DNA of 61,967 nt, the filler included, from a candidate division WOR-3 bacterium (lineage in GTDB: Bacteria > SDB-A): NCBI GenBank assembly GCA_016934535.1. It is 5 parts of 5 records of this genome, joined end to end, with 100 filler letters (N's around TTAATTAATTAA, not from the genome) between each part and the next. Parts side by side here need not be neighbours in the genome. Positions count along the whole stretch, not along the records: positions 1 to 10,219 come from JAFGSQ010000067.1; 4 more parts are not named here. One strand, given 5' to 3'. Under the pieces are notes generated by a model. That model did not search any database, was not told where the DNA came from, and was given only the letters and a program-made list of their open reading frames with translations. The position numbers and the translations under genes are program-made. Positions 1 to 32,617 of this stretch are shown piece by piece. Numbering within the stretch: the first letter of the stretch is position 1; each line of letters begins with the position of its first letter.

Positions 1-938
1 TGTTTGGAAAGGGCTTCGATCTTATTTTCGTTGTGGGCTATGTCTATAAAAACACCTGAAGAAATCTCTTCGAATCTTCCCGCAAAACTCAAATTGCCCA
101 TTTTATAAAGAGCTTCGGAAATTTTATTGTCTCCGCAGAAATGCCGGAAAATTTTAAGCGAAAGAGAGGCGTTTGCTATTTGATGCTCCTGTCCAAACAA
201 TTTTGAATCTTTTTCTGATTTGCTGGCGTAATCACGGATCATCTTTGTGTTTTCTTCATCCAAAACGAACATTTCGGTTTCATTTTTACGGCAGAATTGC
301 CTGAATATCTCCAATGTCTCTTCGTCTGTTTCTCCGGTGAATAAAGGTCTGTTTTTTCTTATGATTCCGGCTTTTTCAGACGCCCTTTGCCATTTCTGCT
401 CTCCGAGGCTCAAAGGATGATCGTAACCTACGGAAGTAATGACTGCGGCTTCAACGTCCACTGCCGTGAGCCTTTCGTATCTTCCGCCGCAGCCGGTTTC
501 AAGAAAAGCCCACTCTACGCCGTGCTTCTCGAAAATCAACAGAGCTGCGAGAACGCATATCTCGCTGAACGACAGGGGAGTCTGTGGATTTTTTGAATAA
601 CGCTTCAAACAAAGGGGCAGAAGTTTATTTTCCCATACTTCGGTAATCTCTCGAGCCTCGACTGTTTTACCCTGGACGGAAAATCTTTCCCTGAAGTCGA
701 AAAGATGTGGATTTGTGAACGATCCTGTTTTGTGATTTACGGAGAAAGAGGCTTCCAGAAAACGGCAAACCGATCCTTTGCCGCTCGTTCCGGCTATTTG
801 AATGAATTTTGTCGGGTGTTTTCCATGCCATATCTCGCCAAGAATTTCTTTCATCATTTCGAATCTGTAAAATCTCTCCGCCATCCAGTCAGCATGGAAA
901 ATCTGATCTACGGCTGTGTAATAAGTGAAATCAGGCAT
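1..938 (-). CDS. folC: Folylpolyglutamate synthase/dihydrofolate synthase, 3' end beyond window
   Basis: Hand translation from ATG 938: MPDFTYY...IQIAGTSGKGS...FTNPHLFDFRERF; FolC P-loop and SPHL-like motifs; absent from ORF track because it runs off the window. Confidence 0.85.
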   Translation of the reverse strand, partial: MPDFTYYTAVDQIFHADWMAERFYRFEMMKEILGEIWHGKHPTKFIQIAGTSGKGSVCRFLEASFSVNHKTGSFTNPHLFDFRERFSVQGKTVEAREITEVWENKLLPLCLKRYSKNPQTPLSFSEICVLAALLIFEKHGVEWAFLETGCGGRYERLTAVDVEAAVITSVGYDHPLSLGEQKWQRASEKAGIIRKNRPLFTGETDEETLEIFRQFCRKNETEMFVLDEENTKMIRDYASKSEKDSKLFGQEHQIANASLSLKIFRHFCGDNKISEALYKMGNLSFAGRFEEISSGVFIDIAHNENKIEALSK

Positions 939-947
939 AACAGTCAG

Positions 948-2330
948 CTATTTGTGGATTTTGCTCAAAAAATCTTCAATTTCCGGAATCCCGCCCTGAA
1001 ATATGAGATACCCGTTGTAAGGTTCCCTTTCCGTAATCTCATCAGAAACCGGTGATAGCATTATCTTTTTGACTTCATCCAAGTCGCTTGTCTGACCGAG
1101 CGCCCATCCTAATTTTATGTAGGCCACTTCCGGCAGCATGTTTTCTGCAGGCACGACCCCCAAGCTCATTAGGTCTCTGCCCGTGTCGTAAACGAACATG
1201 TGAACGTATCCCCAAAGCGTTTGAACGGTCATGAACATCGCGACATTCTTTTTTGCCGCTCTCTCTATGGCAGGATAAAGAGGTTTGTTGACGTGACCGA
1301 GACCGGTTCCAATGATGATAATACCCTTGTATCCGTTGTCGACAAGTGAATCTATCATGTCGGGAGCCATGTTCGGATAATAATAAATCATGGCGACTTT
1401 TTCTTCGAAAAAAGGGATTATGTTAGCCGTTTTGTCGGATCTTCTTTTTTTGTACGTCTTTCTGATAGGCGTTATTTTATCTCTGTCGACCATAGCTATC
1501 GGAATGTCGCCTATGGTCCTGAAAGTCGAACGGTATGAGGAGTGCATTTTTCTAACTCTCGTCCCGCTGTGAAGCAGTCCGAATTTGTCTGATGTCGGAC
1601 CGAACATACAGACCATAACTTCTGCAATGTCTGATTCAGCGGCGGTTTTTACGGCGTGAATCAGGTTGAGGGCGGCGTCGGAAGACGGCCTGTCGGAGGA
1701 TCTCTGCGATCCGACCATGACTATAGGGACAGGTGAGTTCTGGACCATGAAAGAGAGTGCGGCGGCCGTGTGGTGCATCGTGTCCGTGCCGTGACCAATG
1801 ACTATGCCCTGAGTTCCTTTCTTTATTTCTTCTCCTATCGCGATGGCGAGTGTTTTATACTGCTGGGGACCCATATTCTCGCTGAATACGGCAAAAAGTT
1901 TTTCAGTCGTGAGGTTGCAGATGTCAGCCAGTTCCGGAACCGCTCCGTAAAGTTCTCCCGGAGAAAAAGCGGGTATCACTGCGCCTGTTCTGTAGTCGAG
2001 TCTGGAGGCGATAGTGCCGCCGGTTCCGAATAATTTTATGGCGGGTTTATCAGGCGAGAACGGGAATTCCTTTTCGGGAATTTTGTAGTGAGCCTCTTTG
2101 TACCCGACGTCCTCGATAGCCGCGATGATGTCAGCTGATATACCTATGTTATAGCCGCTGGGAATTTTTAATACAATGTGCCTGTCGTCGTCGTTTACCG
2201 ATCTGGGGAGTATTATACCTCTGAATTCGCCTCTATTTGTCTTGACGACGGCATCTGTCCATACGGGCACGTTGAATTTTTTAAGGACTTTGAGTGAGGC
2301 TCCTCTGTATCCTTTGTAAATCTCTAGCAT
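948..2330 (-). CDS. gatD: Glu-tRNA(Gln) amidotransferase subunit D (asparaginase-like, with N-terminal domain)
   Basis: GTGGTIASRLDY, HGTDTM, GSQRSSDRPSSDA, RKMHSSYR; N-terminal LKIPSGYNIG domain typical of GatD; ATG 2330 overlaps gatE stop (TAATG). Confidence 0.93.
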   Translation of the reverse strand: MLEIYKGYRGASLKVLKKFNVPVWTDAVVKTNRGEFRGIILPRSVNDDDRHIVLKIPSGYNIGISADIIAAIEDVGYKEAHYKIPEKEFPFSPDKPAIKLFGTGGTIASRLDYRTGAVIPAFSPGELYGAVPELADICNLTTEKLFAVFSENMGPQQYKTLAIAIGEEIKKGTQGIVIGHGTDTMHHTAAALSFMVQNSPVPIVMVGSQRSSDRPSSDAALNLIHAVKTAAESDIAEVMVCMFGPTSDKFGLLHSGTRVRKMHSSYRSTFRTIGDIPIAMVDRDKITPIRKTYKKRRSDKTANIIPFFEEKVAMIYYYPNMAPDMIDSLVDNGYKGIIIIGTGLGHVNKPLYPAIERAAKKNVAMFMTVQTLWGYVHMFVYDTGRDLMSLGVVPAENMLPEVAYIKLGWALGQTSDLDEVKKIMLSPVSDEITEREPYNGYLIFQGGIPEIEDFLSKIHK

Positions 2331-4288
2331 TAAGAAATCTCCGCGTTCAATTCTCTGAGCGGGATGTTGCCCAAAGAAACTGTTTTTAATTTTCCCATGA
2401 GCCATCTGCTTTCGGCTTTTTCGTCTTTTGATTTCCTTATTTTTGAAAAGTTTTTCCTGAGTTCCGGGACAAGAGAGAGTATTTCGTTTTTTTCTGTTCT
2501 GACGAAACCCGAAAGTGCAAAAAGTGATTCAATTTCCATGTTAGGATTTTCGATTAGTATTTTTGAAACATCGCGTATCTTTTCGAAATTTATGGAATGA
2601 GACTGCATGTGGCTGAAAATCTCGGATAATCTGACGTAAGGGAAATTTTTACCGGTTTTACCTTCGAGATTTTTAATGAAATGTCCGAACAGGCACGAGA
2701 GAAATTTCTGATGAATTCCGAAAAGTAAATTAATTTCTTCGAGCACAGGCATGAGATTTTTCTTGAGCATATAATTTTTAACGTCTTCGGGGGCATCCCA
2801 GGAGTCGAGTTGATCAAATCTTTCTTTTACCGGCACTGGGAGCTTGGCTTCAATATTTTCTACATATGTGTTTTCAAGGGGGATGGGAGCTGAATCAGTG
2901 TCCGGGTACATTCTGTCAGGACCGGGAAGAACTCTTTCGAAAATCGTCGTTCCGTCGGGCATGCCTTTTCTCGTTTCACCGGGAACACCGTCGAACAGAA
3001 GAAGACATCTTTCTTCAACGGCCTCGAGAGCGGTTTTCATGTCTTCCTCTGGTCCCCAGAATACAAGAACAGAATCTCCTCTTTCGCAGTGCAAAGCTCT
3101 CGATATTTCGTTGAGCATTTTTTTATTTTGACTGAATTGACCGTCTTCGGAATGAATGAGGTTGGGTTTTTCCAAACCGGCGATGACTTTAAGCCTTCCG
3201 CTCAATTCGTCAGAAAAATCCTTTCCGGGTGATGTGAAGAAGGAAAGAATTCCTTCGAATCCCGGCAGGCGAATCGCGCGGGCGGATAAAATTTCCCTGC
3301 CGTAAGCTTTCGTGTGTGAATGGGGAAGATCGAGTCTGTCCGGATCTATTGCCGCGGAAAAAATATGCCAGTTTTTTTTGTTTCCGAAACGTTTTATAAG
3401 GATTTTTTGTATTTCGAGCAGAGCTTTCTGGCGGAATGCCTCATTGTGAACCAGCCACGGGAAGTAACTTATTTTGGATATTCCCTTAAGTTCGACGCGT
3501 GTTCCGCCTGAGACGCTGACATTGACGTCCTGCCTCGTCGCTCCGATGCCCGTTCTTACTTTTCCGGTGCTTCTGGTCAGGAATCTTATGTATTGACCGG
3601 CTTCGACGACCTCGAGGGGATCGAGCATGTCCGGATAAGTCACTGTTTCGATGAGAGGCATTCCGAGCCTGTCTGTCGTGTAAATCCTGTCGTGCCTGAA
3701 ATCCGAGACTTCCCTGCAAGAATCCTCTTCAAGGCTGAGCTGAATAATTCTCACGTCTTTGTTTTTGAGAGGGATTTTGCCTTCAATGCCTACTATTGCC
3801 GTCCTTTGAAATCCCGTAGGTATGCTTCCGTCGAGATATTGCTTTCTCGTAATGTGAAGTTCTCCGACAATGTTTGTCCTCAAAAGACAGGCTATCTCAA
3901 CGGCTATGTCCAATGCGTTTAAATTGACTGAAAAAGGGGGTGTGTCGTCAATTTCGTAAGTACAAGTCGTTTCTTTTCTTATTCTGTATATTATTTTTTT
4001 TCTCGTTTTGAATTCCATCAGAGCCGTACCGTCGTATTCACCCAGTTCGCTCAAAGTGGGCCGCATGTGCCTGATCAGTTCAGCTTCGAAATATCCGGGT
4101 TCAAAATAAATTCCCGCCGGACAGCGGCAGAACAGTTTTTTATCTGTTAAAAGCTGTTGATGGACTTCGAGACCGCATTTGAAACCCAGTGACGTATAAG
4201 TGTCATTGACGGCGCTTTTGTAAGGGACGTAGCCGGTCAAAGCCCTTGTTTTTTGTATGTTTTCTTCACGATTGAAATAATCTTGCAT
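2330..4288 (-). CDS. gatE: Glu-tRNA(Gln) amidotransferase subunit E
   Basis: GFKCGLEVHQQL, LRPTLSELGE-like MRPTLSELGE, DGSIPTGFQRT, LEEDSCR, DRLGMPLIE, GIGATRQDVNVS, PGPDRMYPDTD; 652 aa with central insertion domain, unlike shorter GatB. Confidence 0.93.
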   Translation of the reverse strand: MQDYFNREENIQKTRALTGYVPYKSAVNDTYTSLGFKCGLEVHQQLLTDKKLFCRCPAGIYFEPGYFEAELIRHMRPTLSELGEYDGTALMEFKTRKKIIYRIRKETTCTYEIDDTPPFSVNLNALDIAVEIACLLRTNIVGELHITRKQYLDGSIPTGFQRTAIVGIEGKIPLKNKDVRIIQLSLEEDSCREVSDFRHDRIYTTDRLGMPLIETVTYPDMLDPLEVVEAGQYIRFLTRSTGKVRTGIGATRQDVNVSVSGGTRVELKGISKISYFPWLVHNEAFRQKALLEIQKILIKRFGNKKNWHIFSAAIDPDRLDLPHSHTKAYGREILSARAIRLPGFEGILSFFTSPGKDFSDELSGRLKVIAGLEKPNLIHSEDGQFSQNKKMLNEISRALHCERGDSVLVFWGPEEDMKTALEAVEERCLLLFDGVPGETRKGMPDGTTIFERVLPGPDRMYPDTDSAPIPLENTYVENIEAKLPVPVKERFDQLDSWDAPEDVKNYMLKKNLMPVLEEINLLFGIHQKFLSCLFGHFIKNLEGKTGKNFPYVRLSEIFSHMQSHSINFEKIRDVSKILIENPNMEIESLFALSGFVRTEKNEILSLVPELRKNFSKIRKSKDEKAESRWLMGKLKTVSLGNIPLRELNAEIS

Positions 4289-4374
4289 AAAATCTTCTGT
4301 TATTATAGGATTGATGACTATATATCAAAATCAGGTACAAAGCAAATGCAATTGCCCGAACAAAAGAGGTTAAA

Positions 4375-5721
4375 ATGACGAAAGAAATTTACAAAGTTTT
4401 CGCGGCGGTTTTAATGTTACTTTTGCCGGCGGCTTTTTATGCCGGAGTATGTATACCGGGAGTTGGTTGTTTTTCAGGAGTTGAAGGCTGTGAGATTACT
4501 ACGCCCTGGTATAATCCCGGCTACCTCTATACATATCAGAAAGCCATCGAAAAAAACGCCGTCGGTGTTGAGTACGGAGAAAGATTCCCGGGAACCGACA
4601 GATGGGGATTCCTGCATTACCGTCTCGGTAAAAATTACATCGGGCTCGCCGCCAACAGAAAGCAGTATTTGGGCGGTTACCCGTTCGACACGACGTATTT
4701 CAGACCCAGGATATCTGCGCCCAACGATGTATTCCCTTACATGCTCGATTCGATAAAACCGCCGACTTATCTGGTCGACGTCATCGTATCCAGAAATATG
4801 TTCGGCGGGGGAGCGGGGCTCAATGTGCATTTCGGTTCCAAATCCCAGGAAAGCGAATACGATTATTTCCTGACTCAGAGCCACATAAAAGCAGAACCGA
4901 GTTCAAATTCATTCGGAGCGATTTTAGGGATAGACAATAAAAGTTACTACATCACAGCAGGCTTTGACTATCTGACGTGGAATTCCGATTTTGAGATTGT
5001 CGACACTTTAAACGACACTAATTTCGTCGATTTCGAAAACACTTACACCAGCGCGAATTTAAATTTTCAGTACAAAAAATGGATAGACCAGACAAGATAC
5101 ATAACATTGCCGACTCTTTCATTCAACTATGATAACGGCAGTGAGAATTTTTCATCGCGAGAACTGGGACACGCGCTAAATCCGGAAAACGAAAGAAACA
5201 AATACTCATTGACTACGGGTCTAGCTTTTGACGACATGGGAATCCCGAATTCGTTCAGCGTCGGAGTAAATTTTATTTACACAAGAACCGTGAACGAATT
5301 CCAAATGGACACGGTTTTCACGGATATGGCAGCCGACACTATTTTCAGAACACTGCCGGGAAAAGCGACTATTGACGAGTACACTTTTCCCCAGATGTAC
5401 TTTTCGGCTAATTTCTTTATATGGAAATGGCTGAGCGCCAACGCTTCTGTGAATTACTCTATAAAATACACGTCGTCTGACGTAGAAAGATCATACGCTG
5501 AGCTGGACGGAGGATCTTACGTCCTGAGAAAAACTCTACAAAAGAAAACCGGTTTTGAAAGGGAAATTTCATTCGATCTCGGGGCGGAGATAACTGTTCT
5601 CGAAGACCTTAAAATCAATTTTGTTGTCGACGACAAAATTCTTTTTGACGAACCATATTTGATCTCGGGAGACAAGTCTTTTTTGATTGTTACAAAGATC
5701 ACGGCTTGGTACCAGTTCTGA
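4375..5721 (+). CDS. Putative outer-membrane beta-barrel protein
   Basis: Signal peptide, alternating amphipathic strands, aromatic-rich, C-terminal WYQF; GAGG RBS. Confidence 0.6.
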   Translation: MTKEIYKVFAAVLMLLLPAAFYAGVCIPGVGCFSGVEGCEITTPWYNPGYLYTYQKAIEKNAVGVEYGERFPGTDRWGFLHYRLGKNYIGLAANRKQYLGGYPFDTTYFRPRISAPNDVFPYMLDSIKPPTYLVDVIVSRNMFGGGAGLNVHFGSKSQESEYDYFLTQSHIKAEPSSNSFGAILGIDNKSYYITAGFDYLTWNSDFEIVDTLNDTNFVDFENTYTSANLNFQYKKWIDQTRYITLPTLSFNYDNGSENFSSRELGHALNPENERNKYSLTTGLAFDDMGIPNSFSVGVNFIYTRTVNEFQMDTVFTDMAADTIFRTLPGKATIDEYTFPQMYFSANFFIWKWLSANASVNYSIKYTSSDVERSYAELDGGSYVLRKTLQKKTGFEREISFDLGAEITVLEDLKINFVVDDKILFDEPYLISGDKSFLIVTKITAWYQF

Positions 5722-5744
5722 AAAGTATTTTTTGATTCATCCGC

Positions 5745-6776
5745 ATGTCCGTTCTGAATCTTATACTCTTTGTTCTCTTTTATGCAGGGCGTGAACCGGT
5801 CACCTCTACCGATCAGTTCTCAGACGACATCGGATGGATCATGGAGAATATACAGGAAAAAGTTATAGGCTCGGAAGAGAGCCTCGTCATATTTCATTCG
5901 GTCGAATATTACCTAAAGTCTGCTGAAAGATATGAGTGGTCCGACGAAATTCCTGAAGACATTAGAAAAAGATACGTCCTTTATCCGAGGCTTTCTCAGG
6001 AACCCCTTGAAGATTACAGGCCATTTTTTTATGATATCCTCGCCGACAGCCTTGACACCTGTCAAAACTCTGCTTCAGCCGCGGAGACAATATTCAGATG
6101 GTCTTCTTCTGTTTTGAAATTCAAACAGACGTCGAGGAGGGACCAGGGGCCTTTGGAGACTTATTATTCGGGTTACGGAAGGTGCGAAGAACTGATGATT
6201 TTTTCCGCGTCAGTCTGCAGGACATTCGGTATTCCGGCCCGGCAGGTTTATGTCCCTTATTGGTCTTTCACGGACAACAATCACGCATGGACGGAGGTTT
6301 TTGTCGGCGGAGAATGGCATTACATAGACGAAGGCGCCGTTCTCGATGAAACCTGGTTCAGCGATTATCTTGAAAAAACGGCTCTTGTTCTGGCCGTTTC
6401 GCCGGGAAGACCGGAAAATGAAGATATTGTCAGAGAGTACCATGACGCTTCGCTGATAAACAGAACTAGAAATTACGCTCCTTCGGGCGTTCTCTTATTT
6501 ATTGTTACAGAAGACGGAGAACCAGCTGAAAGCGCGCGAGTGTCTGTGTGCGTTTATAATTGGGGCGCATTGAGGGAAATTGCCGGTGGATTCACGGGAA
6601 AAGACGGATTATATTCCTTGACCCTGGGTTTGGTGAGCGTGTTTGCTTTTTCTGAAAAAAAAGGAAAAACGGCATTCGGTATTTATACTCCGCTTGACTC
6701 CGACACCGTGCGTTGCCTTCTCGATCTGGGAACTTATTCCTGGACGGACACGTCGTTTTTTCTGAGGATCAAATGA
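5745..6776 (+). CDS. Exported transglutaminase-like protein with intact Cys-His-Asp triad
   Basis: GRCEE, GIPARQV, NHAWTEV, WHYID; hydrophobic N-terminus. Confidence 0.8.
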   Translation: MSVLNLILFVLFYAGREPVTSTDQFSDDIGWIMENIQEKVIGSEESLVIFHSVEYYLKSAERYEWSDEIPEDIRKRYVLYPRLSQEPLEDYRPFFYDILADSLDTCQNSASAAETIFRWSSSVLKFKQTSRRDQGPLETYYSGYGRCEELMIFSASVCRTFGIPARQVYVPYWSFTDNNHAWTEVFVGGEWHYIDEGAVLDETWFSDYLEKTALVLAVSPGRPENEDIVREYHDASLINRTRNYAPSGVLLFIVTEDGEPAESARVSVCVYNWGALREIAGGFTGKDGLYSLTLGLVSVFAFSEKKGKTAFGIYTPLDSDTVRCLLDLGTYSWTDTSFFLRIK

Positions 6777-8161
6777 AAATTTATTTATTTGCGGTTTTAT
6801 TGTGTATGACGCAGATTTTATACCCTTCCAACGATGATATATTCGAAAGAGCCGGTGAAAAAGCGTTTAACGTCGCGTCTTTTCTGAATTCAATCGGCGA
6901 CGATACAAAAGCCGGATACGCGCTCAATCTCCTTGAAATACTCGGCAGCATAGATCTTCTGGAATTTGATTCGGCGCTTTTCAGTGGCAATCTAGATTGT
7001 TCGATGGAATTACTCGCGAAAAAATCTTTACCCGATTCAATCTTTGTCAAATACCTGCTCGATTACAGAATATTTTTCGAACCGCCGTCATCATACAAAC
7101 AATTACTCAAGGAGTTTTTTGAAAGTGAAACGGCAATCTCTGAAGACGCGATCACAACAGCTCGAGTTATAAACGACTGGACTCGTTCGTCTCTTTTAAC
7201 TGATTCGTTTAACCTTCTGGGTCCAGGCAGATCCGTGATGCGAATTTTTTACGAAAAATCGGCTACCGAGAGAGAGACAAATATTTTTATTGTTGCCGCC
7301 CTGAGATCCCTCGGTTTTCCATCGAGACTCGTTTTTCTTCCGGCAGGGACAAAGATAGAAAAAAGCTACGAATGGATAGAGATATACGTCCCAAATTCCT
7401 GGGTGCCTTTTTATCCTGACGACGCCTCATTTTCGGGCGATTTTACTTACCCCGATGAAAAGTACGGAGTCAGCGCCGTTTATGCTTTTGGTGCCGGTGA
7501 AATTGAAATGCTGACAGAAAATTATGCATTGACTGGAACGGTTCAGGTTGAACCGGACTCTTTTTCAACGGACGTCTGCGATTATTCGATCGGCATTGTA
7601 TGCGGAGGAGCCATAAAGGTTTTTGATTATTTCGATTTTCCGGATGAAGCCGATGAATTATTTTCAGCTCGCCTCGGAAGAGGGGAGTATTTGTTTGTAA
7701 CCGGGTTGAGAGACGAGAGCGGTTCCGCGGCAGTAAATATGTTCACGTTTGACGTTGAGCCCGGAGAAACCGTGAAGATGGCCTTGGAACAGCCTGAATT
7801 TCCCGTGATCCGTGAAACCGATGAATTGCCCCCGCAAATATTCGAGCGCCTTTCCGCTCTTTCTTTGGAGACGCCCTGTGTAATAATTTGCGGAGATGTG
7901 GAATCCGAGCCGTTTGAGAGGATGCTTGAAATAATAACTCTGGAAGCTGAAAACGTCAGGATATACCTTCCCGATCCGGTTTTATTTCATTCTCTGGAAC
8001 AGGAGGAATACGAACTTCTAATCGGAACAGATATTGAAACCCCTTTGATCGTCGGTTTATCATCTGATCCTGAAAAATGCTTTGTCAGGACAGGATTCAA
8101 TCTCGGTATCGGTGAAAAACTTCGCGAATGGATAAAAACTCTCAGGGAGGAAAACAGATGA
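6773..8161 (+). CDS. Exported transglutaminase-like paralog, catalytic residues replaced
   Basis: ATG 6773 overlaps upstream TGA; LRSLGFPSRLV...YEWIEIY aligns with the upstream paralog but Cys/His/Asp are missing. Confidence 0.65.
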   Translation: MKIYLFAVLLCMTQILYPSNDDIFERAGEKAFNVASFLNSIGDDTKAGYALNLLEILGSIDLLEFDSALFSGNLDCSMELLAKKSLPDSIFVKYLLDYRIFFEPPSSYKQLLKEFFESETAISEDAITTARVINDWTRSSLLTDSFNLLGPGRSVMRIFYEKSATERETNIFIVAALRSLGFPSRLVFLPAGTKIEKSYEWIEIYVPNSWVPFYPDDASFSGDFTYPDEKYGVSAVYAFGAGEIEMLTENYALTGTVQVEPDSFSTDVCDYSIGIVCGGAIKVFDYFDFPDEADELFSARLGRGEYLFVTGLRDESGSAAVNMFTFDVEPGETVKMALEQPEFPVIRETDELPPQIFERLSALSLETPCVIICGDVESEPFERMLEIITLEAENVRIYLPDPVLFHSLEQEEYELLIGTDIETPLIVGLSSDPEKCFVRTGFNLGIGEKLREWIKTLREENR

Positions 8162-9162
8162 GACTTATGGTTACGGGAGGAGCCGGTTTTATCGGGTCTA
8201 ACTATATAAGACAAAGGTTCATCAGGAATCCGTCCGATGAAATATTGAATTACGACCTTCTGACTTACGCAGGAAATCCTGAAAACCTGCGCGACATGGA
8301 AAAAAGCTCATACTCCTATGTATTCGAAAAAGGTGACATATGCGATTCTGAAAGAGTAAGAAGCGTTTTGAAGAACTTTAAACCCGAGGCTGTAATAAAT
8401 TTCGCCGCGGAAAGTCACAACAGTTATTCCGTTCTTGACCCCGGTGTTTTTTTCAGAACAAACGCAATGGGAACCCAAAACTTGCTCGAATGCGCAAGGC
8501 TCGAGTACGTGGAGAGGTTCCATCACATTTCCACCTGTGAAGTTTACGGAGACATGGATTTAAATGACAACGGCTCGTTCACCGAGAGTTCTCCATACAG
8601 ACCAAAGACAGTATATAACGCTTCAAAAGCCGCCGCGGATCATGCTGTCCGGGCGTATCAAAATGTCTTCGGTTTGAAAACGACAATTTCCGTTTGCTGC
8701 AACAATTACGGTCCCTATCAGTATCCTGAAAAACTAATACCGCTTTTTTTAACCAGAATATTCGAAGGGGGAAAAATCCCTGTTTACAGAAGCAGTGCGA
8801 ACAAAAGAGAATGGCTTCACGTCCTGGATCACTGCTCGGCAATAGATGCTGTTCTCCAAAGAGGAAAAATTGGCGAGACATACAACATAGGGAGTTCGGT
8901 TGAAAAGAGCGTTGAAGAAATTGCTGAAACTCTCATGAAACTTACATCCGCTCCTGAAGGAACAAAAACTTACGTCGAAGACAGACCGGGGCACGACAGA
9001 AGATATCTTTTAAACAGCTCCAAAATCAGAAATGAGCTCGGATGGAAACCTGAAATAGATTTCGACGATGGAATTTCTCGCACAGTCGAATGGTTCAGAG
9101 AAAACGAAAAGTGGTGGAAGAATTTGATAAAAAAATCTTCAGTTGACGAGACGGCGTGGTGA
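8158..9162 (+). CDS. rfbB: dTDP-glucose 4,6-dehydratase
   Basis: VTGGAGFIGSN, DLLTYAGN, FAAESH, YNASK, NNYGPYQYPEKLIP, DRPGHDRRY; ATG 8158 after GGAGG. Confidence 0.92.
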   Translation: MRLMVTGGAGFIGSNYIRQRFIRNPSDEILNYDLLTYAGNPENLRDMEKSSYSYVFEKGDICDSERVRSVLKNFKPEAVINFAAESHNSYSVLDPGVFFRTNAMGTQNLLECARLEYVERFHHISTCEVYGDMDLNDNGSFTESSPYRPKTVYNASKAAADHAVRAYQNVFGLKTTISVCCNNYGPYQYPEKLIPLFLTRIFEGGKIPVYRSSANKREWLHVLDHCSAIDAVLQRGKIGETYNIGSSVEKSVEEIAETLMKLTSAPEGTKTYVEDRPGHDRRYLLNSSKIRNELGWKPEIDFDDGISRTVEWFRENEKWWKNLIKKSSVDETAW

Positions 9163-10219: not shown

Positions 10220-10319
10220 NNNNNNNNNNNNNNNNNNNNNNNNNNNNNNNNNNNNNNNNNNNNTTAATTAATTAANNNNNNNNNNNNNNNNNNNNNNNNN
10301 NNNNNNNNNNNNNNNNNNN
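10220..10319. other. Artificial contig linker
   Basis: N44-TTAATTAATTAA-N44. Confidence 0.97.
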
Positions 10320-15651: not shown

Positions 15652-15725
15652 TCACCCGTACGGGACTCGAACCCGTACTCTTCGGCTTGAAAGGCCGATG
15701 TGTTAACCACTTACACTAACGGGTG
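15652..15725 (-). tRNA. tRNA-Glu(TTC), atypical
   Basis: CACCCGT/ACGGGTG acceptor, GTGT/ACAC D stem, TCGGC-CTTTCAA-GCCGA, ACGGG-TTCGAGT-CCCGT; CCA not encoded. Confidence 0.9.
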
Positions 15726-15737
15726 TTTTTTTTACAC

Positions 15738-15837
15738 NNNNNNNNNNNNNNNNNNNNNNNNNNNNNNNNNNNNNNNNNNNNTTAATTAATTAANNNNNNN
15801 NNNNNNNNNNNNNNNNNNNNNNNNNNNNNNNNNNNNN
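15738..15837. other. Artificial contig linker
   Basis: N44-TTAATTAATTAA-N44. Confidence 0.97.
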
Positions 15838-19245: not shown

Positions 19246-19922
19246 TAAAGTCCGCTAATGCTTATGCCTATGCTGTATGATTCTTCTTTAATGTCAATTT
19301 CGGGAAGAATGACTCTGTCGTTGGACAATCTTCTCAGACTGTTTATTGTCCATGCGAAAGAAACCACTCTCGTCAGAATGGCTCCGGAAATGATGTAAGA
19401 AGCGTTCTGAAGAGCCTCTCTTGAATTTCTTCTCATTCCCCTGTAAAAATCGTATTGTGCCTGTCTTCCGCTCCAGTCCCATGCGTAAGAACCGGAAAAA
19501 CCGTTTTCCTGAATATATCTGAGTTGGGCGTCATAATCATCCGGATAAAGCTTTCTGGCATCTTCCCTTATTTTCAAATTGTAGCTCTCCGAATTTTCAT
19601 ACCATTCGACGGCGTCCCAATATGTTTCGCTTCTCTCGCCTGAATAAGCGCCTGAGTTATCACCCGCGTACATACGGTAGTTGTTAATTATTGAGTTCCC
19701 TTTCCATCTCATCGAAAGGTAGCCGGTCCAAACCAAACCTTCGGCGATGAACAGACCTAACGCGGCTTTTTTGTTGCCGAGCAGAAACTCTCCTGCTCCG
19801 GGAACGAGTATAGAGGCAAACAATACCTTCGATCTGGACGGTGCGGAAAAAATTTCCGATTTGAACGCTATTCCGTTCAGCAAAATATTGAAGGAAATAA
19901 AAGCGATTAATATTTTTTTCAT
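19242..19922 (-). CDS. Hypothetical membrane protein (DUF5683-like)
   Basis: SILVPGAGEF motif and hydrophobic segments; translationally coupled on both sides. Confidence 0.55.
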   Translation of the reverse strand: MKKILIAFISFNILLNGIAFKSEIFSAPSRSKVLFASILVPGAGEFLLGNKKAALGLFIAEGLVWTGYLSMRWKGNSIINNYRMYAGDNSGAYSGERSETYWDAVEWYENSESYNLKIREDARKLYPDDYDAQLRYIQENGFSGSYAWDWSGRQAQYDFYRGMRRNSREALQNASYIISGAILTRVVSFAWTINSLRRLSNDRVILPEIDIKEESYSIGISISGLY

Positions 19923-22900
19923 TTGATCACCGCCATTTTGACAAATTTTACTGTTGTGTTTCCTGAATCCCTGGCTTCAATTCTGAGCAAATATACACCC
20001 GCGGCGAGAAAACCTACATCAAAGCTTTTTTCGTTTATACCTGTAAAAGTGTCTCCGTTAAAAGTATCTTTTTTGTCTCCGGCTATATCGAAAATTGCAA
20101 TCTCTATTTCGTCGACTTCCTCCGACAAAGTATACCTCAGATAGGCAGTGGTTCCTTCAACAGGATTCGGCCAAACGTAAAGATCTGAAAAGTCGGCGAA
20201 CAAAACGGGATTTTGCCCGGGTTGATTTTGTTTCAAGTCGTGAGCCGGGTCTCTGCGGAACATAGGCCAAGGCGATTTTCCCGTGTCTCTTCCGAGACTC
20301 CATCCGCGGATCTTACCGTCATCGACATTGGCTATCAAATCAATAAAACCGTCTCCGTCAAAATCAATAACCGTTGGAGTGCTGTATACTGAATCGCCGC
20401 AGCTCAAAGGAAAACCTCCGATAACTTTTCCTTTACAGTCAAATCCGCATATCCAGCCGCTTATTGTTCCGATTATTATGTCTGTCTTGTCGTCCCCGTT
20501 TACGTCGGCGAGGACAGGCGAAGACTGAACATTGAATGTGTCGCCGAGACTGACGGGAAAACCTTCTAAAACTGCACCGTTCGCATTATACGCGTAAATT
20601 TTACTTCCGAAAGCGGCAACTATATCCAGATAACCGTCATCGTCTATGTCTCCCAACGAAGGAGAAGTGACGTACGATTTTCCTTCGAGTTTTCTGTTCC
20701 ATATATTTTTTCCGTCATAAGTGAGAAGATGAAGACCTCCGTCTCCGCGAAGAACTACAATTTCATCAAATCCGTTGCGATCAATGTCAGCCAGACAAAG
20801 AGAAGAAGTCGTCAAAATCAGAGAGGGTTCGAAAACTCTCCATTTTTCCATCCAAGTTCCGTAAGAGTTCTCGGAATAAGCGTGAAGAACACCGTCTCCG
20901 CCCAAAGCATAAAGAAAACTGTCTCCTAAAACCGGCGTTGACCAGACCCAGTTACCCATTTCCATTGGAAAACCGGGAACTAAGTCTGCTTTACCGTCTT
21001 TGTCGGCATCTTCCATTTTGAAACAGTAAAATTTGTTGTCGTTTGCGCCGACCAATAGTTCTTTCATGCCGTCCCCGTCAATATCAAGAAGTGCTGGACT
21101 GCAAGCCACTCTTGCGTTGACCCTGACGGGAAAACCGTCAACGGCCTGAGGGGGTATCATGTTGGGCAGAGAATGCCAAGCGTATATGTATCCGTTTTCG
21201 TTGCCGCAGACTATTTCTTTCCCGTTCAAAGTGTCACCGTCTGCTTCAGCTATAACAACTGATGTAAACGATTCGGCGTATGTCCTGAAAAAAATTGTTG
21301 TGGTTGATGTGTTTGTTCTCATATACCCGCTTCCGTCTCTTTCAAAAGCATAGACGGTTCCGTCTTCAGTTATTGTCACAAGTTCCAGCTCTTCATCGTA
21401 ATCAATATCGCATATTACGGGAGAGTTGACGTCGAAAGTGCCGATAACGAAAAAAGGAAAGTTGTCGAGAAGCCAGTCGAAACTCACGTTGAACCTTGCG
21501 ATCGTGTCGTTTATTATTCTCAGGCTGTCTATTCTCAAATGTGTGACGGATCCGAAATTGTCGTTTGTGTTAGGATTTGTATAAGCATCAAATCTGGTCA
21601 AACCGCCCGGTTTGAACAAGTCGTATTCATTGCCGTAAAAAGTTGAATTCCAGTTGGTCACTTCGTAATAACCAAGTTCACAGTCCTGTATTCCGTCCGC
21701 TTCCTCAAGGTCTACTCCATGAGGAAATCCGGCATTTACTCTGTTGTCTTCAACTGTCGTGTCAACTTTTACTCTGTCTATATGCCATATTGCAAGGCCA
21801 CCACTGCTGTCGCTTTGCGGAAGGCTGTAGTCGTAGTCGAAAAATTTCACCATTACGCCGCCTCTCCAAACCCTAGTCGCGTTAGAGTCCGGATTGACGT
21901 GTGACGTGTCTCCCGGAGTAGCGGAATATCTGTATGAAATAAGAAAGTGCTCTCTGTTGTTAATTGGGATTTTCACGTAATAAACGGCTGTTGTGTCCAA
22001 GGAACCTCGCCACCTGAGTTCCACGGTTGTGTCTCTGACAATCTCAGAAGGACGGGACCAACGCGGATAACTCATGTACGAAGTATTCCACACATCGTGA
22101 TGAGGAGGGACAAGGCCGTCGAGGTTCCAGTTTCCAGTCCCCATCAGTGACCACCCGTTGCATCCCATAGTCTGACCGGAAACATCGTAAAGATCATACG
22201 CGCCAAGCTGATGAGCAAACTCGTGCGTCAGTCCACCCTGAAGATATGCGACGCCTCCGTCCTGGAAACCGGTCTCACAATACATCACGGCTTCAAAAAT
22301 GGAATCAGTTCTGTTGTTTGCATATATAGGTTCCCCGAAAAGGGCGTCTGCACCTCCGATCCAAACTGCCGGAAGATCGTAGGGACTGTCGCCGTAATCA
22401 GTCTGCCACATAGATCCCGCGTGAAAAAGGACGATTGCATCGTATTCAGAAAATATTATATTTGCCGCTGTGTCTTTGTCGGCTTCATAAACTGCATCAC
22501 GCAACAGATAAAAAAGTCCGTAGACAATGTTCTGCGGTTCTCCATAATAAAGCATCTGGTGCGGAACGGTGTAAGAAGCTGATTCTCCGGCCGGAAATAT
22601 GTCGTAATCAACGTAAAGGAAGTTTTTTGTGTCGCTCAAATAATAATTTTGGAGAGCTTCCATCTGATGACCGAAATATGACAAATTATGCGGTGGATCA
22701 TATCTGAGGTTGTGAGATCCGTCCGAATTATATTCAGGCTCGCCGTTTCCTGTATAATTGAATTTACCGTTGCCGGTTGTCAAGGACGAGTTGTCCTCCT
22801 GGAATTCAACTCTGAGAACCAAAACCTTCATTGTGTCCGTATCCCTGGGACCGTCACCGAATTTATATACCTTTCTCGCCGGAGCATTAAAATGATATCC

Positions 22901-23050
22901 TGCGAGCGGATTGTTTCTGTATAATTCCAGCTCTTTTTCTATAAATCTGCCTGCGTTCCCGCAAAATAAATCTTGCATCTGGCCAAATTCGATGTTAGCA
23001 TTCATGGCCGTTGCAAGCAGGAAGCAGGTTGAAAAGAGAGTCAATTTCAT
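19919..23050 (-). CDS. Secreted M6 (immune inhibitor A-like) metalloprotease with FG-GAP/VCBS repeats and T9SS-like C-terminal domain
   Basis: VLRVEF, FHAG, HEFAHQLGAYDLYD, WSLMGTGNW; DIDxDGxxE/D repeats; YVWPNP...LAAGVYLLRI...VKMAVIK. Confidence 0.82.
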   Translation of the reverse strand: MKLTLFSTCFLLATAMNANIEFGQMQDLFCGNAGRFIEKELELYRNNPLAGYHFNAPARKVYKFGDGPRDTDTMKVLVLRVEFQEDNSSLTTGNGKFNYTGNGEPEYNSDGSHNLRYDPPHNLSYFGHQMEALQNYYLSDTKNFLYVDYDIFPAGESASYTVPHQMLYYGEPQNIVYGLFYLLRDAVYEADKDTAANIIFSEYDAIVLFHAGSMWQTDYGDSPYDLPAVWIGGADALFGEPIYANNRTDSIFEAVMYCETGFQDGGVAYLQGGLTHEFAHQLGAYDLYDVSGQTMGCNGWSLMGTGNWNLDGLVPPHHDVWNTSYMSYPRWSRPSEIVRDTTVELRWRGSLDTTAVYYVKIPINNREHFLISYRYSATPGDTSHVNPDSNATRVWRGGVMVKFFDYDYSLPQSDSSGGLAIWHIDRVKVDTTVEDNRVNAGFPHGVDLEEADGIQDCELGYYEVTNWNSTFYGNEYDLFKPGGLTRFDAYTNPNTNDNFGSVTHLRIDSLRIINDTIARFNVSFDWLLDNFPFFVIGTFDVNSPVICDIDYDEELELVTITEDGTVYAFERDGSGYMRTNTSTTTIFFRTYAESFTSVVIAEADGDTLNGKEIVCGNENGYIYAWHSLPNMIPPQAVDGFPVRVNARVACSPALLDIDGDGMKELLVGANDNKFYCFKMEDADKDGKADLVPGFPMEMGNWVWSTPVLGDSFLYALGGDGVLHAYSENSYGTWMEKWRVFEPSLILTTSSLCLADIDRNGFDEIVVLRGDGGLHLLTYDGKNIWNRKLEGKSYVTSPSLGDIDDDGYLDIVAAFGSKIYAYNANGAVLEGFPVSLGDTFNVQSSPVLADVNGDDKTDIIIGTISGWICGFDCKGKVIGGFPLSCGDSVYSTPTVIDFDGDGFIDLIANVDDGKIRGWSLGRDTGKSPWPMFRRDPAHDLKQNQPGQNPVLFADFSDLYVWPNPVEGTTAYLRYTLSEEVDEIEIAIFDIAGDKKDTFNGDTFTGINEKSFDVGFLAAGVYLLRIEARDSGNTTVKFVKMAVIK

Positions 23051-23406: not shown

Positions 23407-24765
23407 ATGCCTGACAAAGAAACTGATAAAAGCGCCGAAAACTGGGAAAGAATAGTAAAGCTTCTGAAAAATGAAGCTCCTTTTGAAGGTCATGAATCTT
23501 TAAATCTCTGGTTTGCCAATTCAAAAGCTTTACATATGGATGACGGAGTTTTAAAGATAGAAGTCCCAAACTCAACAATAAAAGATTGGATAGATCACAA
23601 TTATCTTAAAAAAATTAACAATTTAATAAAAGCAAACTTTCCTAGTAATTTCGAAATTACTTTTATTGCAAAAGAGTTCAACCACATACCTGAACCTGAA
23701 ATTAAAATTGAAACTCAGGAAGCGGTTATAAATATAAGCACGACAAATCTGGACAATAGATATACATTTGACAATTTTATTCAAGGAGACAGCAACAAAT
23801 TTGCTTGTGCAGTCGCCGTTTCTGTTTCAGACAATCCGGGTACAAGATACAATCCTCTATTTATTTATGGCGGAGTCGGCCTAGGAAAGACTCACATTTT
23901 AAACGCCATAGGTAATAAAATAATTCACGGAAGAAAATTAAAACAGATTCTTCTAACCTCGGCTGAAATGTTTGTAAATGAATTGATTGAATCCATAGGA
24001 AAAAACCAGCAAACAATCTTCAGAAAAAAATACAGAAACCTTAATGTTCTGATGATAGACGACATTCAGTCTCTTGTGAGATGGGACAGCGCTCAGGATG
24101 AATTCTTTCACACTTTTAACACTCTTTATAGTTTAAAAAATCAAATTGTAATGACATCAGACAGACCTCCGAACGAAATTCCGAAACTTCACGAAAGGCT
24201 TATATCAAGATTCAGACAAGGATTGATGGTTGAAATTAAACCGCCTGAACTTGAAACGAGAATAGCCATATTAGAAAGATATGCTCAAAATAATCACATA
24301 AATGTCGAAAAAGAAGTGCTAGACGCTATAGCAAGAAAAGTAACAGACAACGTCCGGGTTCTCGAAGGTGCCCTCATAAGACTTTCTGCATTCAGTTCCA
24401 TAGTAGGAAAAGATGTCATAGACATTGAAATGGCGCATGAAATATTAAAGGACATTTTAAAAAGCGAAGAAAAAGTTATCACTCCTGAGATTATACAGAA
24501 GAAAGTAGCTGAATTTTTTGATTTGTCGGAATACGCGATAAAGGGGAAAAAAAGGAACAAATCAATCGCTATTTCAAGACACATTGCTATGTATCTGACA
24601 AGAGAGATGACTGATTTATCTTACAAAGAGATAGGAGAATTATTCGGAAAAAAAGACCATTCTACAGTAATTCATGCTATTAAAAAAATCGGAAAGAAAA
24701 TTCAGGAAGAACAGTCGTTTGCAAAAGAAATCGAAAAAATTAAATCAGACTTGAAAGATAAATAG
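23407..24765 (+). CDS. dnaA: Chromosomal replication initiator DnaA
   Basis: YTFDNF, NPLFIYGGVGLGKTH, IDDIQ, FFHTFN, GKKDHSTVIHA. Confidence 0.98.
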   Translation: MPDKETDKSAENWERIVKLLKNEAPFEGHESLNLWFANSKALHMDDGVLKIEVPNSTIKDWIDHNYLKKINNLIKANFPSNFEITFIAKEFNHIPEPEIKIETQEAVINISTTNLDNRYTFDNFIQGDSNKFACAVAVSVSDNPGTRYNPLFIYGGVGLGKTHILNAIGNKIIHGRKLKQILLTSAEMFVNELIESIGKNQQTIFRKKYRNLNVLMIDDIQSLVRWDSAQDEFFHTFNTLYSLKNQIVMTSDRPPNEIPKLHERLISRFRQGLMVEIKPPELETRIAILERYAQNNHINVEKEVLDAIARKVTDNVRVLEGALIRLSAFSSIVGKDVIDIEMAHEILKDILKSEEKVITPEIIQKKVAEFFDLSEYAIKGKKRNKSIAISRHIAMYLTREMTDLSYKEIGELFGKKDHSTVIHAIKKIGKKIQEEQSFAKEIEKIKSDLKDK

Positions 24766-24985
24766 TGTTTTTGTTTAAAAGAGATGAAAAAAGTGTGGAA
24801 ATCAGATAAACAATATTGACAAAAAGATTAATAATGAAAAAATGTGAATTCTTTGAATTTATAAACAAAAGAATTAACAAGGGTAAACTTAATAACTTAA
24901 TGACATAAACAATGTATCAAGATAATTCACACAGCAACAACAACAACAGATATATATTTAATATTAGTTGAAGAAAGGAGAGAAT
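24766..24985. promoter_or_regulatory. oriC-like dnaA-dnaN spacer with DnaA boxes, trinucleotide repeat and AT-rich tract
   Basis: TGTGGAAAT 24794, TTATAAACA 24859, TAATTCACA 24923, then CAG(CAA)4CAG and ATATATATTTAATAT. Confidence 0.7.
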
Positions 24986-26110
24986 ATGAAATTTAAAACT
25001 TCCTCCGATGTTTTTCTTACAAGCCTGGAACCTCTTTTATCAATCGTTCCTCAGAGAACACCGTATAATGTTTTAAAAAATCATTTGAAAATGACTGCGG
25101 AAAAGAAAAAGATTAAAATTCTTGCCACAAATATTGAAACTACCGGAGAACTGTCATTCGACGCAGACGTAGAAAAAGAAGGTGAAATTGTAATACCGGT
25201 CAAAAAACTGACTGATTTTTTGAGAAAAATTCCTTCTTCGGAATTGAGTATAGAAGCTGTTTCTGGAAAACTAAATTTTATGTATGACAAAGGATATTTT
25301 CATTTACCAACTGTAATGCCTGACGAATTTCCCGAAATTCCTGAAGTTGTGCCTGAAAAAGAAATTCTTTTTAACCCGAGAATGTTAAAAAAAATGGTTG
25401 ATAAAACCGCTTTTGCGATAAACACAATTGGAGCGACTAGCCCTATTGTCGACGGTATTTATTGGAAATTTAAGGGAAAAAATACAGAAATGGTAGGAGC
25501 GAGTAACCACAGACTCGCAAAATTTTCCAATGAAGTCCAAATAAACGCCGATTTTTCTGTAATAATACCTCAAAAGTTTCTTGTACACGTCTCTTCATAC
25601 GTCGAAGAAGAAGATATAAAAATCTCTCTTGGGCAGGAAAGAATCAGTTTTCATATACCTGAAAAGAACCTTTTACTGACAAGCAGACTAATAAATTTTA
25701 ATTTTCCAGATTACAGTAAAATAATATTTGATTCTTCAAAACATAAATTTCAGGTAAATAAAAAAACTATTTATGAAGTAATAGCGAGAATTTCAATTTT
25801 TTCAGATTCTCTATCTTTCAGGATAAAATTGTTTTTTGACAAAGATAATAAACTTGAAATTTCTTCATCTTCAACAGAAAGCGGAGAAGCAAAAGAAACA
25901 ATAGAATATATGAGGAATTCAAAAGGGAATGAAAAAATTAAAATTCCGATTAATTATCACTACATTACTGATATATTGAAAAATATTGAAAGTGAAGATG
26001 TTTTGTTTTTGATAAATGAGACTGATAAAGCTATTGAAATCGTACCTGCTGAAGAAGATCCTGGTGAGAAAGTTGTTTATATTTTGATGCCTTTACATTC
26101 TAAAGACTGA
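24986..26110 (+). CDS. dnaN: DNA polymerase III beta clamp
   Basis: After dnaA; ATNIE, DEFPEIP, ASNHRLA, SRLINFNFPDY, YILMPL; AAGGAG RBS before ATG 24986. Confidence 0.93.
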   Translation: MKFKTSSDVFLTSLEPLLSIVPQRTPYNVLKNHLKMTAEKKKIKILATNIETTGELSFDADVEKEGEIVIPVKKLTDFLRKIPSSELSIEAVSGKLNFMYDKGYFHLPTVMPDEFPEIPEVVPEKEILFNPRMLKKMVDKTAFAINTIGATSPIVDGIYWKFKGKNTEMVGASNHRLAKFSNEVQINADFSVIIPQKFLVHVSSYVEEEDIKISLGQERISFHIPEKNLLLTSRLINFNFPDYSKIIFDSSKHKFQVNKKTIYEVIARISIFSDSLSFRIKLFFDKDNKLEISSSSTESGEAKETIEYMRNSKGNEKIKIPINYHYITDILKNIESEDVLFLINETDKAIEIVPAEEDPGEKVVYILMPLHSKD

Positions 26111-26111
26111 C

Positions 26112-28226: not shown

Positions 28227-28237
28227 GGAGGAGCGAC

Positions 28238-28900
28238 TTGAAATTATTATTGTCGCTGTTTGTCATTGTCATGACTCTTTTCGCAGCGTATTCAGTTTAT
28301 CTTTATTTTACAAAGTATAAGATGATTGAAGATAAATTAATAAGTGTAGAACATGAAAGAAACGCGCTTCTGACTAGAATGGCTTCTGTTGAAGGATTTA
28401 AAGTCAACGACACGTTGATGTCAAAAACGAGCACTCCGTTGACTCCATACGGCAAGGAAATTGTTGATTCGCTGGAATTGCAGGTAAACAATATAATTAT
28501 GGAAGTCGATTCTCAAGTTTTTATAGGAGCGTCGGTTGAAATACCCCTGGATAATTTTTTTGATCCGGAATCTATTACAGTGTGGAAGCAAGGAGGAAAA
28601 GAGCTTTTACAAAGAATCGGCGACATTATTAACAGAAGCGGAAACGTAAAAGTTGTTTTTTCTGTATACGTAGACAGTTATATTCCCGGAGAGGGAGAGA
28701 TTTACGCAATAAAAACCCCATGGGAAGTTGCAGCAAAAAGAGGACTCGACATAGTTCAATTTCTGAATGACAGCTGCGGAACAGTATCAGCTCAAATAAC
28801 ACTTGAAATTTACGGATCACAGTTTCCAAAAGGAGACACGACTACCAGGGAAGGAAGAGTTGCGACGAGAAGAGTTGTTTTTACGCTTTTGGAAAAATGA
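28238..28900 (+). CDS. Membrane protein with degenerate OmpA/MotB-like domain
   Basis: TM anchor and coiled coil; PWEVAAKRG and EGRVATRRV resemble MotB NWELSAARA and EGRAKNRRV. Confidence 0.55.
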   Translation: MKLLLSLFVIVMTLFAAYSVYLYFTKYKMIEDKLISVEHERNALLTRMASVEGFKVNDTLMSKTSTPLTPYGKEIVDSLELQVNNIIMEVDSQVFIGASVEIPLDNFFDPESITVWKQGGKELLQRIGDIINRSGNVKVVFSVYVDSYIPGEGEIYAIKTPWEVAAKRGLDIVQFLNDSCGTVSAQITLEIYGSQFPKGDTTTREGRVATRRVVFTLLEK

Positions 28901-29856: not shown

Positions 29857-30266
29857 ATTTAATCGTTTTTTTATTGATAGTAAACGTAACGGGAGATTTT
29901 CAGCCTTCTCCTGCCAGAGCAATATTCTCTTCAGTTTTAATTCCTGGAGGAGGGCAGTTTTATACAGGTAGAACAACGAGAGGAATAATAATAGGAACGA
30001 TAGAAGGTTTAATGTTATCTTCCACCGTCTATAATCATTTCAAATACAAACATTATTTGAATGAATTTGAGAGAACAGGAAACATTGAAGACAGTCTAAG
30101 ATATAGAGGTTTTTACGACATGAGAAACAATATGTTGTGGTGGGATGCCTTTGTTATTGCTGTTTCTGCGGTTGACGCTTATGTTGGCGCCAAGATGTAT
30201 GCTTATTACGAACACCAGGAAAATGGCGACGGAAGAATAAATATTGGATGGGTTTTAAATTGGTAA
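29853..30266 (+). CDS. DUF5683-like membrane protein
   Basis: SPARAIFSSVLIPGGGQFY, SAVDAYVGA. Confidence 0.65.
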   Translation: MNLIVFLLIVNVTGDFQPSPARAIFSSVLIPGGGQFYTGRTTRGIIIGTIEGLMLSSTVYNHFKYKHYLNEFERTGNIEDSLRYRGFYDMRNNMLWWDAFVIAVSAVDAYVGAKMYAYYEHQENGDGRINIGWVLNW

Positions 30267-31770: not shown

Positions 31771-31779
31771 GAGAGAGAC

Positions 31780-32616: not shown

Positions 32617-32617
32617 T

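Follow-up and report, generated by a model that had tools for sequence, protein, structure and literature searches.

The stretch of DNA analyzed here, hereafter the window (61,967 nucleotides, filler included), comes from a candidate division WOR-3 bacterium (assembly GCA_016934535.1) and joins five parts of five records that need not be neighbors in the genome. On the minus strand near its start lie gatE (2330..4288; 652 amino acids) and gatD (948..2330; 460 amino acids), followed by a partial folC (3..938) that runs off the window's edge. The first two genes encode the subunits of the amidotransferase GatDE: GatE, here of a bacterial clade, is the tRNA-dependent kinase/amidotransferase subunit, and GatD the asparaginase-type glutaminase. 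Textbooks place GatDE in archaea only, and the archaeal enzyme is specific for glutamine. Our main finding is that the window operon is an ordinary member of a large bacterial GatDE clade, to which it adds little alone, and that GatDE with intact active sites occurs beside glutaminyl-tRNA synthetase (GlnRS) in 48 of 50 bacterial carriers. The 50 carriers, on which all carrier counts below are based, are the genomes of the related loci L001-L050, mostly metagenome-assembled genomes (MAGs); they are relatives, as distinct from the window's own genome.

Identity of the gatE and gatD genes

A first, sequence-only reading of the window had described an intact gatE-gatD pair, coupled by a TAATG overlap and followed 9 nucleotides later by folC, and this arrangement can be read directly from the open reading frames and their stop and start codons. 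The last A of the gatE stop codon TAA (2332-2330) is shared with the gatD start codon ATG (2330-2328), and the ATG of folC lies 9 nucleotides past the gatD stop codon TAG (950-948). The folC fragment scores 191.7 bits with TIGR01499 (cut-off 162.65).

Profile searches with the two models that the same reading had proposed, TIGR00134 and TIGR02153, gave scores above cut-off for both proteins. TIGR00134, the curated NCBI equivalog for GatE, reached 374.6 bits against a cut-off of 319.55, while NF003107, at 443.6 bits, fell slightly below its cut-off of 456. The best GatB model attained 109.7 bits, its cut-off being 338, and the Pfam domain GatB_N, 277 positions long, was stretched over GatE residues 37-477. 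GatD scored 497.6 bits with TIGR02153 (cut-off 324) and 504.7 bits with NF003217 (cut-off 310), and is made up of the Pfam domains GatD_N (46.6 bits), Asparaginase and Asparaginase_C. Judged by these profiles, the window proteins are true GatE and GatD, and neither GatB nor an ordinary asparaginase, the two misidentifications that had been envisaged.

Conservation of the catalytic residues

GatE residues 33-610 align without interruption with Methanothermobacter thermautotrophicus GatE (2D6F_C; E 4e-80), and residues 30-625, helical and tail parts included, with the Pyrococcus abyssi enzyme (1ZQ1; E 2e-76); compared with archaeal GatE, the window protein has an N-terminal extension of roughly 30 residues. 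The magnesium ligands described for M. thermautotrophicus GatE are His15, Glu157 and Glu184 (PMC2330236), and their counterparts in the alignment to 2D6F are H43, E187 and E214. The GatE-specific insertion within the cradle domain is kept, as seen from the continuous alignment to 2D6F and from the spread of GatB_N over the protein. GatD aligns with P. abyssi GatD (1ZQ1_A) at E 4e-117 and with 2D6F at E 1e-112, and the motifs GTGGTIAS, HGTDTM and RKMH, which are the Thr, Thr-Asp and Lys motifs of asparaginases, are intact in the alignment to both structures. GatDE has almost certainly kept its chemistry.

Distribution of GatDE among bacteria

When one genome of each prokaryotic species was scanned, 384 stretches with a relative of the window GatE were found. 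The best 80 of these (L001-L080) are 52-76% identical to it, and every one comes from a record labeled as bacterial: Aminicenantes, Cloacimonadota, Zixibacteria, Calditrichaeota, Ignavibacteriales and many Bacteroidales are represented, and the set includes the cultured Ancylomarina salipaludis as well as one complete chromosome. In a protein collection, at least 8000 candidates, all those scored, matched at E 1e-20 or better. The suspicion voiced beforehand that similar genes might already be annotated in other MAGs was well founded, as NCBI and JGI annotations call these proteins GatE of bacterial organisms.

The closest relative, G001, has a GatE and a GatD respectively 76% and 91% identical to those of the window. 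Its GTDB phylum comprises five species, and gatE is present in all five, once as a fragment. The window GatE is 76-77% identical to that of two phylum members, and 86% and 68% identical to the two halves of that of a third; the window's species is therefore not among the five. With gatE in five of five species of the phylum, and bacterial records for the best 80 of 384 relatives, the notion of a transfer special to this genome, or recent in it, has to be abandoned.

The pairing of the two genes is widely conserved, gatD lying downstream of gatE in 74 of the 80 related loci. The spacing between them is 0.66-2.3 kb in five loci (L037, L039, L067, L073 and L076), and in two Bacteroidales-type loci (L040 and L047) no gatD was seen in the 3.9 kb or more lying downstream of gatE. 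Other linkages are less constant: folC stands beside gatD in three of the 80 loci (L001, L002 and L018), and is a lineage-specific neighbor; no neighbor family recurs in more than 14 of the 80, which leaves the operon without a conserved third gene; and ARAGORN detected no tRNA-Gln linked to gatE in any of the 80.

In the 74 loci with a gatD, its product is 66-91% identical to the GatD of the window. When G001 is compared with four genomes labeled as belonging to other phyla, GatD is 71-76% identical, GlnRS 60-63%, GatE 52-56%, asparaginyl-tRNA synthetase (AsnRS) 34-51% and glutamyl-tRNA synthetase (GluRS) 35-38%. That GatD identity exceeds that of the four other proteins points to strong purifying selection on GatD.

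Phylogeny of GatE

A tree of 74 rows (69 GatE, with five bacterial GatB as root) was calculated with IQ-TREE under a simple model (LG+G4) and with a quick search; of 30 representatives looked up, five carried an organism name. The window, two named representatives and 15 loci, which are all the bacterial-labeled GatE, fall in one clade of 35 rows, with a support of 99 in the Shimodaira-Hasegawa-like approximate likelihood ratio test (SH-aLRT). Inside it is a core clade of 16 rows, including the window, on a stem of 0.44 with a support of 100; its loci carry the labels Bacteroidota, Cloacimonadota, Zixibacteria, Calditrichota, Ignavibacteriota and Aminicenantes, along with a few further ones. 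Sister to the 35-row clade, with a support of 95, is a representative from a cluster with a member named Heimdallarchaeota, and sequences named Thorarchaeota and Parvarchaeota branch further out.

This best tree would fit the view that bacteria acquired the gene long ago from an Asgard-like archaeon, in agreement with the archaea-to-bacteria transfer proposed in the sequence-only reading. However, a constrained IQ-TREE search in which the 34 archaeal-half rows were kept together gave a tree only 10.4 log-likelihood units worse, and reciprocal monophyly was not rejected by the approximately unbiased (AU) test (p-AU 0.428). With names also sparse, the direction of transfer and the nesting are tentative.

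Synthetases and amidotransferases of the carriers

A glnS match was obtained in 48 of the 50 carriers, in 46 of them over the curated cut-off, the two weaker matches being fragments at contig ends. The figures for asnS are similar (48 matches, 47 over cut-off); asnB matched in 45 carriers (38 over cut-off), and a glutamine synthetase domain in 47 (all 47 over cut-off). The gene gatB was found in nine carriers, each time over cut-off, and not in the other 41; in four of five well-assembled carriers, neither GatA nor GatB was found. The co-occurrence of glnS and gatE is not an artefact of binning, since the two are found together in an isolate (G002) and on the single replicon of a complete chromosome (G003). 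In the window's phylum, glnS is present in four of five genomes, in two of them as a partial copy; it was not seen in the fifth, the fragmented G054.

These counts bear on the rest of what the sequence-only reading implied, a displacement of GatCAB and GlnRS by GatDE, and on the setting described for GatDE in archaea, where the host is without GlnRS and its GluRS is non-discriminating. Among the relatives neither holds: GlnRS and AsnRS each occur in 48 of the 50 carriers, and GluRS mostly carries the Arg predicted to make it discriminating (see below). It is highly improbable that GatDE is the sole route to Gln-tRNA(Gln). The absence of GatA and GatB from four of the five well-assembled carriers, and of GatB from 41 of the 50, would be compatible with such a replacement, as would the lack of glnS in G054; against it stand the 48 carriers with glnS, among them G001, the isolate and the complete chromosome, and the glnS genes of the window's own phylum. 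The GlnRS of G001 scores 728.5 bits in the glnS search and 683 bits against Pseudomonas aeruginosa GlnRS.

Two further explanations were considered and dropped. GlnRS does not appear to feed GatDE by charging glutamate, given the close match of the G001 enzyme to that of P. aeruginosa; when the alignment is read by eye, it also has identical residues in the stretches that contain the GlnRS-specific Tyr, His, Ser-Cys and Gln positions, as these are given in PMC2978374. Nor does an inability to make glutamine or asparagine offer a general reason for keeping GatDE, as glutamine synthetase is present in 47 carriers and asnB, over cut-off, in 38 (asnA was not searched for). As for gene order, gltX and glnS are neighbors on the same strand, 100-300 nucleotides apart, in many carriers (G008, G009, G010, G027, G030 and G033), and lie on separate contigs in G001.

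tRNA-Gln and the tRNA-contacting loop of GatE

A U1-A72 pair is present in all 15 tRNA-Gln genes recovered, which come from 11 carrier genomes and comprise, among others, the two isoacceptors of G001, and a reading of all 44 tRNAs of G001 uncovered no hidden archaeal-type tRNA-Gln with A1-U72. U1-A72 is common to the tRNA-Asn and tRNA-Gln of that genome. By eye, the D-loops of its tRNA-Glu are 1-2 nucleotides longer than the D-loop of tRNA-Gln(CUG); a longer D-loop in tRNA-Glu is described as an antideterminant used by amidotransferases (PMC2330236). The 44 tRNAs also include a tRNA-SeC(UCA), from which the lineage probably uses selenocysteine.

According to PMC2811023, GatE has a conserved, positively charged loop beside base pair 1-72, and GatB a 3-10 turn two residues longer that allows it to read U1-A72. 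In the archaeal-half rows of our alignment the loop reads GKVKRG(I/L)GTIRQD, with K in 22 of 34 rows, T in 26, and both R and I in 31. The core bacterial rows instead have GKVRTGIGA(A/T)R(E/Q)D, with R in every one of the 15 rows, T in 13 of them and A in 14. A GatB-like 3-10 turn was looked for and is absent from bacterial GatE, whose loop has the length usual for GatE, two residues shorter than in five GatB sequences. The clade-specific loop would fit a switch from A1-U72 to U1-A72 recognition. Since the tRNA-Gln of carriers has U1-A72, while archaeal GatDE reads A1-U72, it is the enzyme rather than the tRNA that appears to have adapted. The sequence-only reading had left the choice between the two; two clade-specific GatE motifs, this loop and one in the tail, speak for the enzyme, and the uniform U1-A72 pairs speak against the tRNA.

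A possible function and its alternatives

We give about even chances to the bacterial pair being an active GatDE that amidates Glu-tRNA(Gln) of the U1-A72 type alongside GlnRS. The asparaginase-type GatD would release ammonia from glutamine or asparagine; GatE would phosphorylate the side-chain carboxyl of the glutamate carried by tRNA-Gln, and then amidate it to yield Gln-tRNA(Gln). The tRNA-contacting elements of this old bacterial clade would have changed to suit U1-A72 tRNA-Gln. Beside GlnRS, GatDE might provide a second or conditional route, or clean up mischarged Glu-tRNA(Gln). What we infer here is that tRNA-Gln serves as the substrate, where its Glu-tRNA(Gln) form comes from and what the pair does in the cell; Glu-tRNA(Gln) still seems the most economical substrate.

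Several observations weigh against this proposal. With a canonical GlnRS in 48 of the 50 carriers, a GatDE route is, on paper, not required. GluRS is encoded by a single gene in each of the genomes G001-G005, and the GluRS of carriers is mostly predicted to be discriminating. The prediction comes from a survey of 34 genomes: four of G001-G005 (the frameshifted copy of G004 was dropped) and thirty more, the best loci of a search that covered 44 of the 50 carriers (G029 and G036 were left out) and found a match in 38 of these 44. An Arg at the position of Thermus thermophilus Arg358, taken as a single-residue predictor, was found in 31 of the 34 GluRS, including that of G001 (in 26 of the 28 genomes that lack GatCAB, and in five of the six that have it). 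A change of Arg358 to Gln is described as rendering the Thermus enzyme non-discriminating (PMC2978374), and the non-discriminating GluRS of Thermosynechococcus elongatus (2CFO), used as a control, has Gly at the aligned position. With such an Arg, GluRS would not obviously make the canonical substrate, Glu-tRNA(Gln). The tail of GatE is also divergent: the Pfam tail model GatB_Yqey (PF02637) does not match the window protein at E 0.001, although the tail does align with 1ZQ1 as far as residue 625. Moreover, LGN takes the place of the archaeal tail motif RGKxDG in all 15 core bacterial rows, and none of the 34 bacterial-clade rows has the first G of GXXAXGX, a residue that 20 of 34 archaeal-half rows possess. 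This glycine is implicated, in PMC2811023, in the ability of archaeal GatDE to tell tRNA-Gln from tRNA-Asn. From these two motif changes, the specificity of GatDE may have shifted.

An altered substrate is the subject of the first alternative, in which GatDE would amidate Asp-tRNA(Asn), with or without Glu-tRNA(Gln) in addition, much as bacterial GatCAB does, and would thereby allow tRNA-dependent asparagine synthesis, or would act on some other aminoacyl-tRNA. We regard it as the main rival, though an unlikely one. The glycine missing from all 34 bacterial-clade rows is in its favor, as are the U1-A72 pair common to the tRNA-Asn and tRNA-Gln of G001, the absence of GatCAB from 41 of the 50 carriers and the lack of an asnB match over cut-off in G001; there is also a precedent, as bacteria with a full set of synthetases are described that keep GatCAB for asparagine synthesis (PMC4206432). 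However, asnB over cut-off in 38 carriers and AsnRS in 48 indicate that there is no general need for such an activity (with the same reservation for asnA), and, according to modeling cited in PMC2330236, AspRS would clash with the insertion domain that the window GatE has kept.

A role not tied to tRNA, in which the pair would have been recruited to another amide transfer or to an asparaginase/glutaminase function, is improbable. The divergent tail and the apparent dispensability of the canonical product could be read in this way, but the full architecture of GatE aligns to the archaeal structures (residues 33-610 and 30-625), the magnesium ligands of the kinase are kept, and gatE and gatD remain paired in 74 of the 80 loci.

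Comparison with known systems

The enzyme proposed here, an active GatDE acting on U1-A72 Glu-tRNA(Gln), resembles archaeal GatDE (2D6F, 1ZQ1) in its two subunits, its domain order, its magnesium ligands and asparaginase motifs, and the short loop of GatE. It differs in that the window and its relatives are bacterial, in that the tRNA-Gln of the host has U1-A72 instead of A1-U72, and in its clade-specific loop and tail residues. A further difference is the coexistence with GlnRS in the window's relatives, archaea being described as devoid of GlnRS in the portion of a 2022 review consulted here. With bacterial GatCAB it has in common the chemistry, the cradle domain shared by GatE and GatB (GatB models score about 110 bits) and tRNA substrates with U1-A72. 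GatCAB, however, consists of the amidase GatA and of GatC in addition to GatB, whereas here the glutaminase is the asparaginase-type GatD and there is no GatC; the window GatE is devoid of the longer 3-10 turn of GatB, and GatB itself occurs in nine of the 50 carriers.

A further comparison is with Bdellovibrio, Thermus and Deinococcus, bacteria with all 20 synthetases, where an amidotransferase is kept beside both GlnRS and AsnRS. There the enzyme is GatCAB, and its presence is explained by tRNA-dependent asparagine synthesis in the absence of AsnA and AsnB (both points from PMC4206432); GatDE carriers, in contrast, usually have asnB (38 of 50).

GatDE is presented as an archaeal signature, or as restricted to archaea, in articles from 2008 to 2022 (PMC2330236, PMC2811023, PMC8007984, PMC9499178, as far as the parts consulted go), and the papers found to pair GatDE with Bacteroidetes likewise treat it as archaeal. 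Our search of the literature on bacterial GatDE, in which the later papers were judged by title, found none that discusses bacterial carriers. The description of GatDE as the classical archaeal enzyme, from which the sequence-only reading started, is thus still that of the papers searched, but not that of the genomes, where the best 80 of 384 relatives are bacterial and many bacterial groups carry the pair. As a variant of a known system, the clade has attracted little notice; its genes are already annotated in databases.

We put forward tentatively, and with less than even confidence, that a large bacterial group runs either GlnRS together with a GatDE retuned to U1-A72, or a GatDE retargeted to a new aminoacyl-tRNA. 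By record label, this group would comprise Bacteroidales, Ignavibacteriales, Cloacimonadota, Zixibacteria, Calditrichota, Aminicenantes and the window's small phylum. If this is true, it would be the first dual pathway to Gln-tRNA(Gln) known in bacteria, the relevant part of a 2014 survey stating that no bacteria were known with both routes (PMC4206432), and GatDE would lose its status as an archaeal signature protein. Reviews up to 2022, in the parts consulted, rest arguments on early translation and on LUCA (last universal common ancestor) on GatDE being archaea-only. Such an enzyme would have to read U1-A72 without the 3-10 turn of GatB, and the second route would be one maintained under strong selection, with an extreme constraint on GatD in particular; with A. 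salipaludis as a cultured carrier, its tRNA substrate and function can be approached at the bench.

Genomic context of the operon

Upstream of gatE, by the coordinates of the open reading frames, a gap of 86 bp (4289..4374), in which the operon presumably has its promoter, separates it from a divergent gene of 448 codons (4375-5721, plus strand) without a Pfam match. Two transglutaminase-core proteins come after this gene (4375-8161 for the three, plus strand), followed by an RfbB-like dehydratase (8128-9162). The order 448-amino-acid gene, gatE, gatD, folC recurs in L001, L002 and L018, with protein identities of 39-91%. Elsewhere in the window there are genes for DnaA (23407-24765), a class A penicillin-binding protein (PBP), TolC/HlyD/AcrB, SecY, HtpG, GlmS and GlmM, an RpoA with the bacterial C-terminal domain, and a protein with the sorting tail of the type IX secretion system (T9SS, Por; 19919-23050, minus strand). 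The tRNAs found include tRNA-Met and tRNA-Glu, with no tRNA-Gln among them. The bacterial setting claimed for the operon at the outset, from an outer-membrane barrel gene, rfbB and a tRNA of bacterial style, is thereby borne out and extended to housekeeping genes.

The composition of the operon is ordinary. Its tetranucleotide profile correlates with that of the whole window at 0.929, and its GC content is 0.453; for 59 equally long sliding windows the median correlation is 0.933, and 42% of them score lower than the operon. Together, the bacterial flanks, the normal tetranucleotide profile and the synteny with L001, L002 and L018 indicate that the contig is neither chimeric nor compositionally odd. 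That archaeal DNA was misassembled or misbinned into a bacterial contig, the last of the alternatives, is excluded for practical purposes by bacterial genes on both sides of the operon, a gene order repeated in three other loci, an ordinary composition and nearest relatives that all lie in bacterial records.

The T9SS tail, and the grouping of GatE with sequences labeled Bacteroidota, Cloacimonadota and Ignavibacteria, contrast with the label Desulfuromonadaceae borne by the records of L001, L002 and L018. These labels of the closest relatives are probably wrong, because GTDB puts G001 in the phylum of five species.

Other features of the window

A low-GC stretch (24001-34000; 0.31-0.39 compared with about 0.44 elsewhere) starts right after dnaA; in it lie the genes for PBP1A and for an adenylate-cyclase/AAA protein. 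Eight masked runs of 44 N occur in pairs, at 10220-10319, 15738-15837, 34568-34667 and 60337-60436, and two of these pairs directly adjoin the tRNA-Met and tRNA-Glu genes. The latter, a tRNA-Glu(UUC) at 15652-15725 on the minus strand (ARAGORN), has a long D-loop and, by the boundaries that ARAGORN assigns, a C1 paired with G72; an identical gene is present in G001, beside a conventional tRNA-Glu(CUC) with G1-C72.

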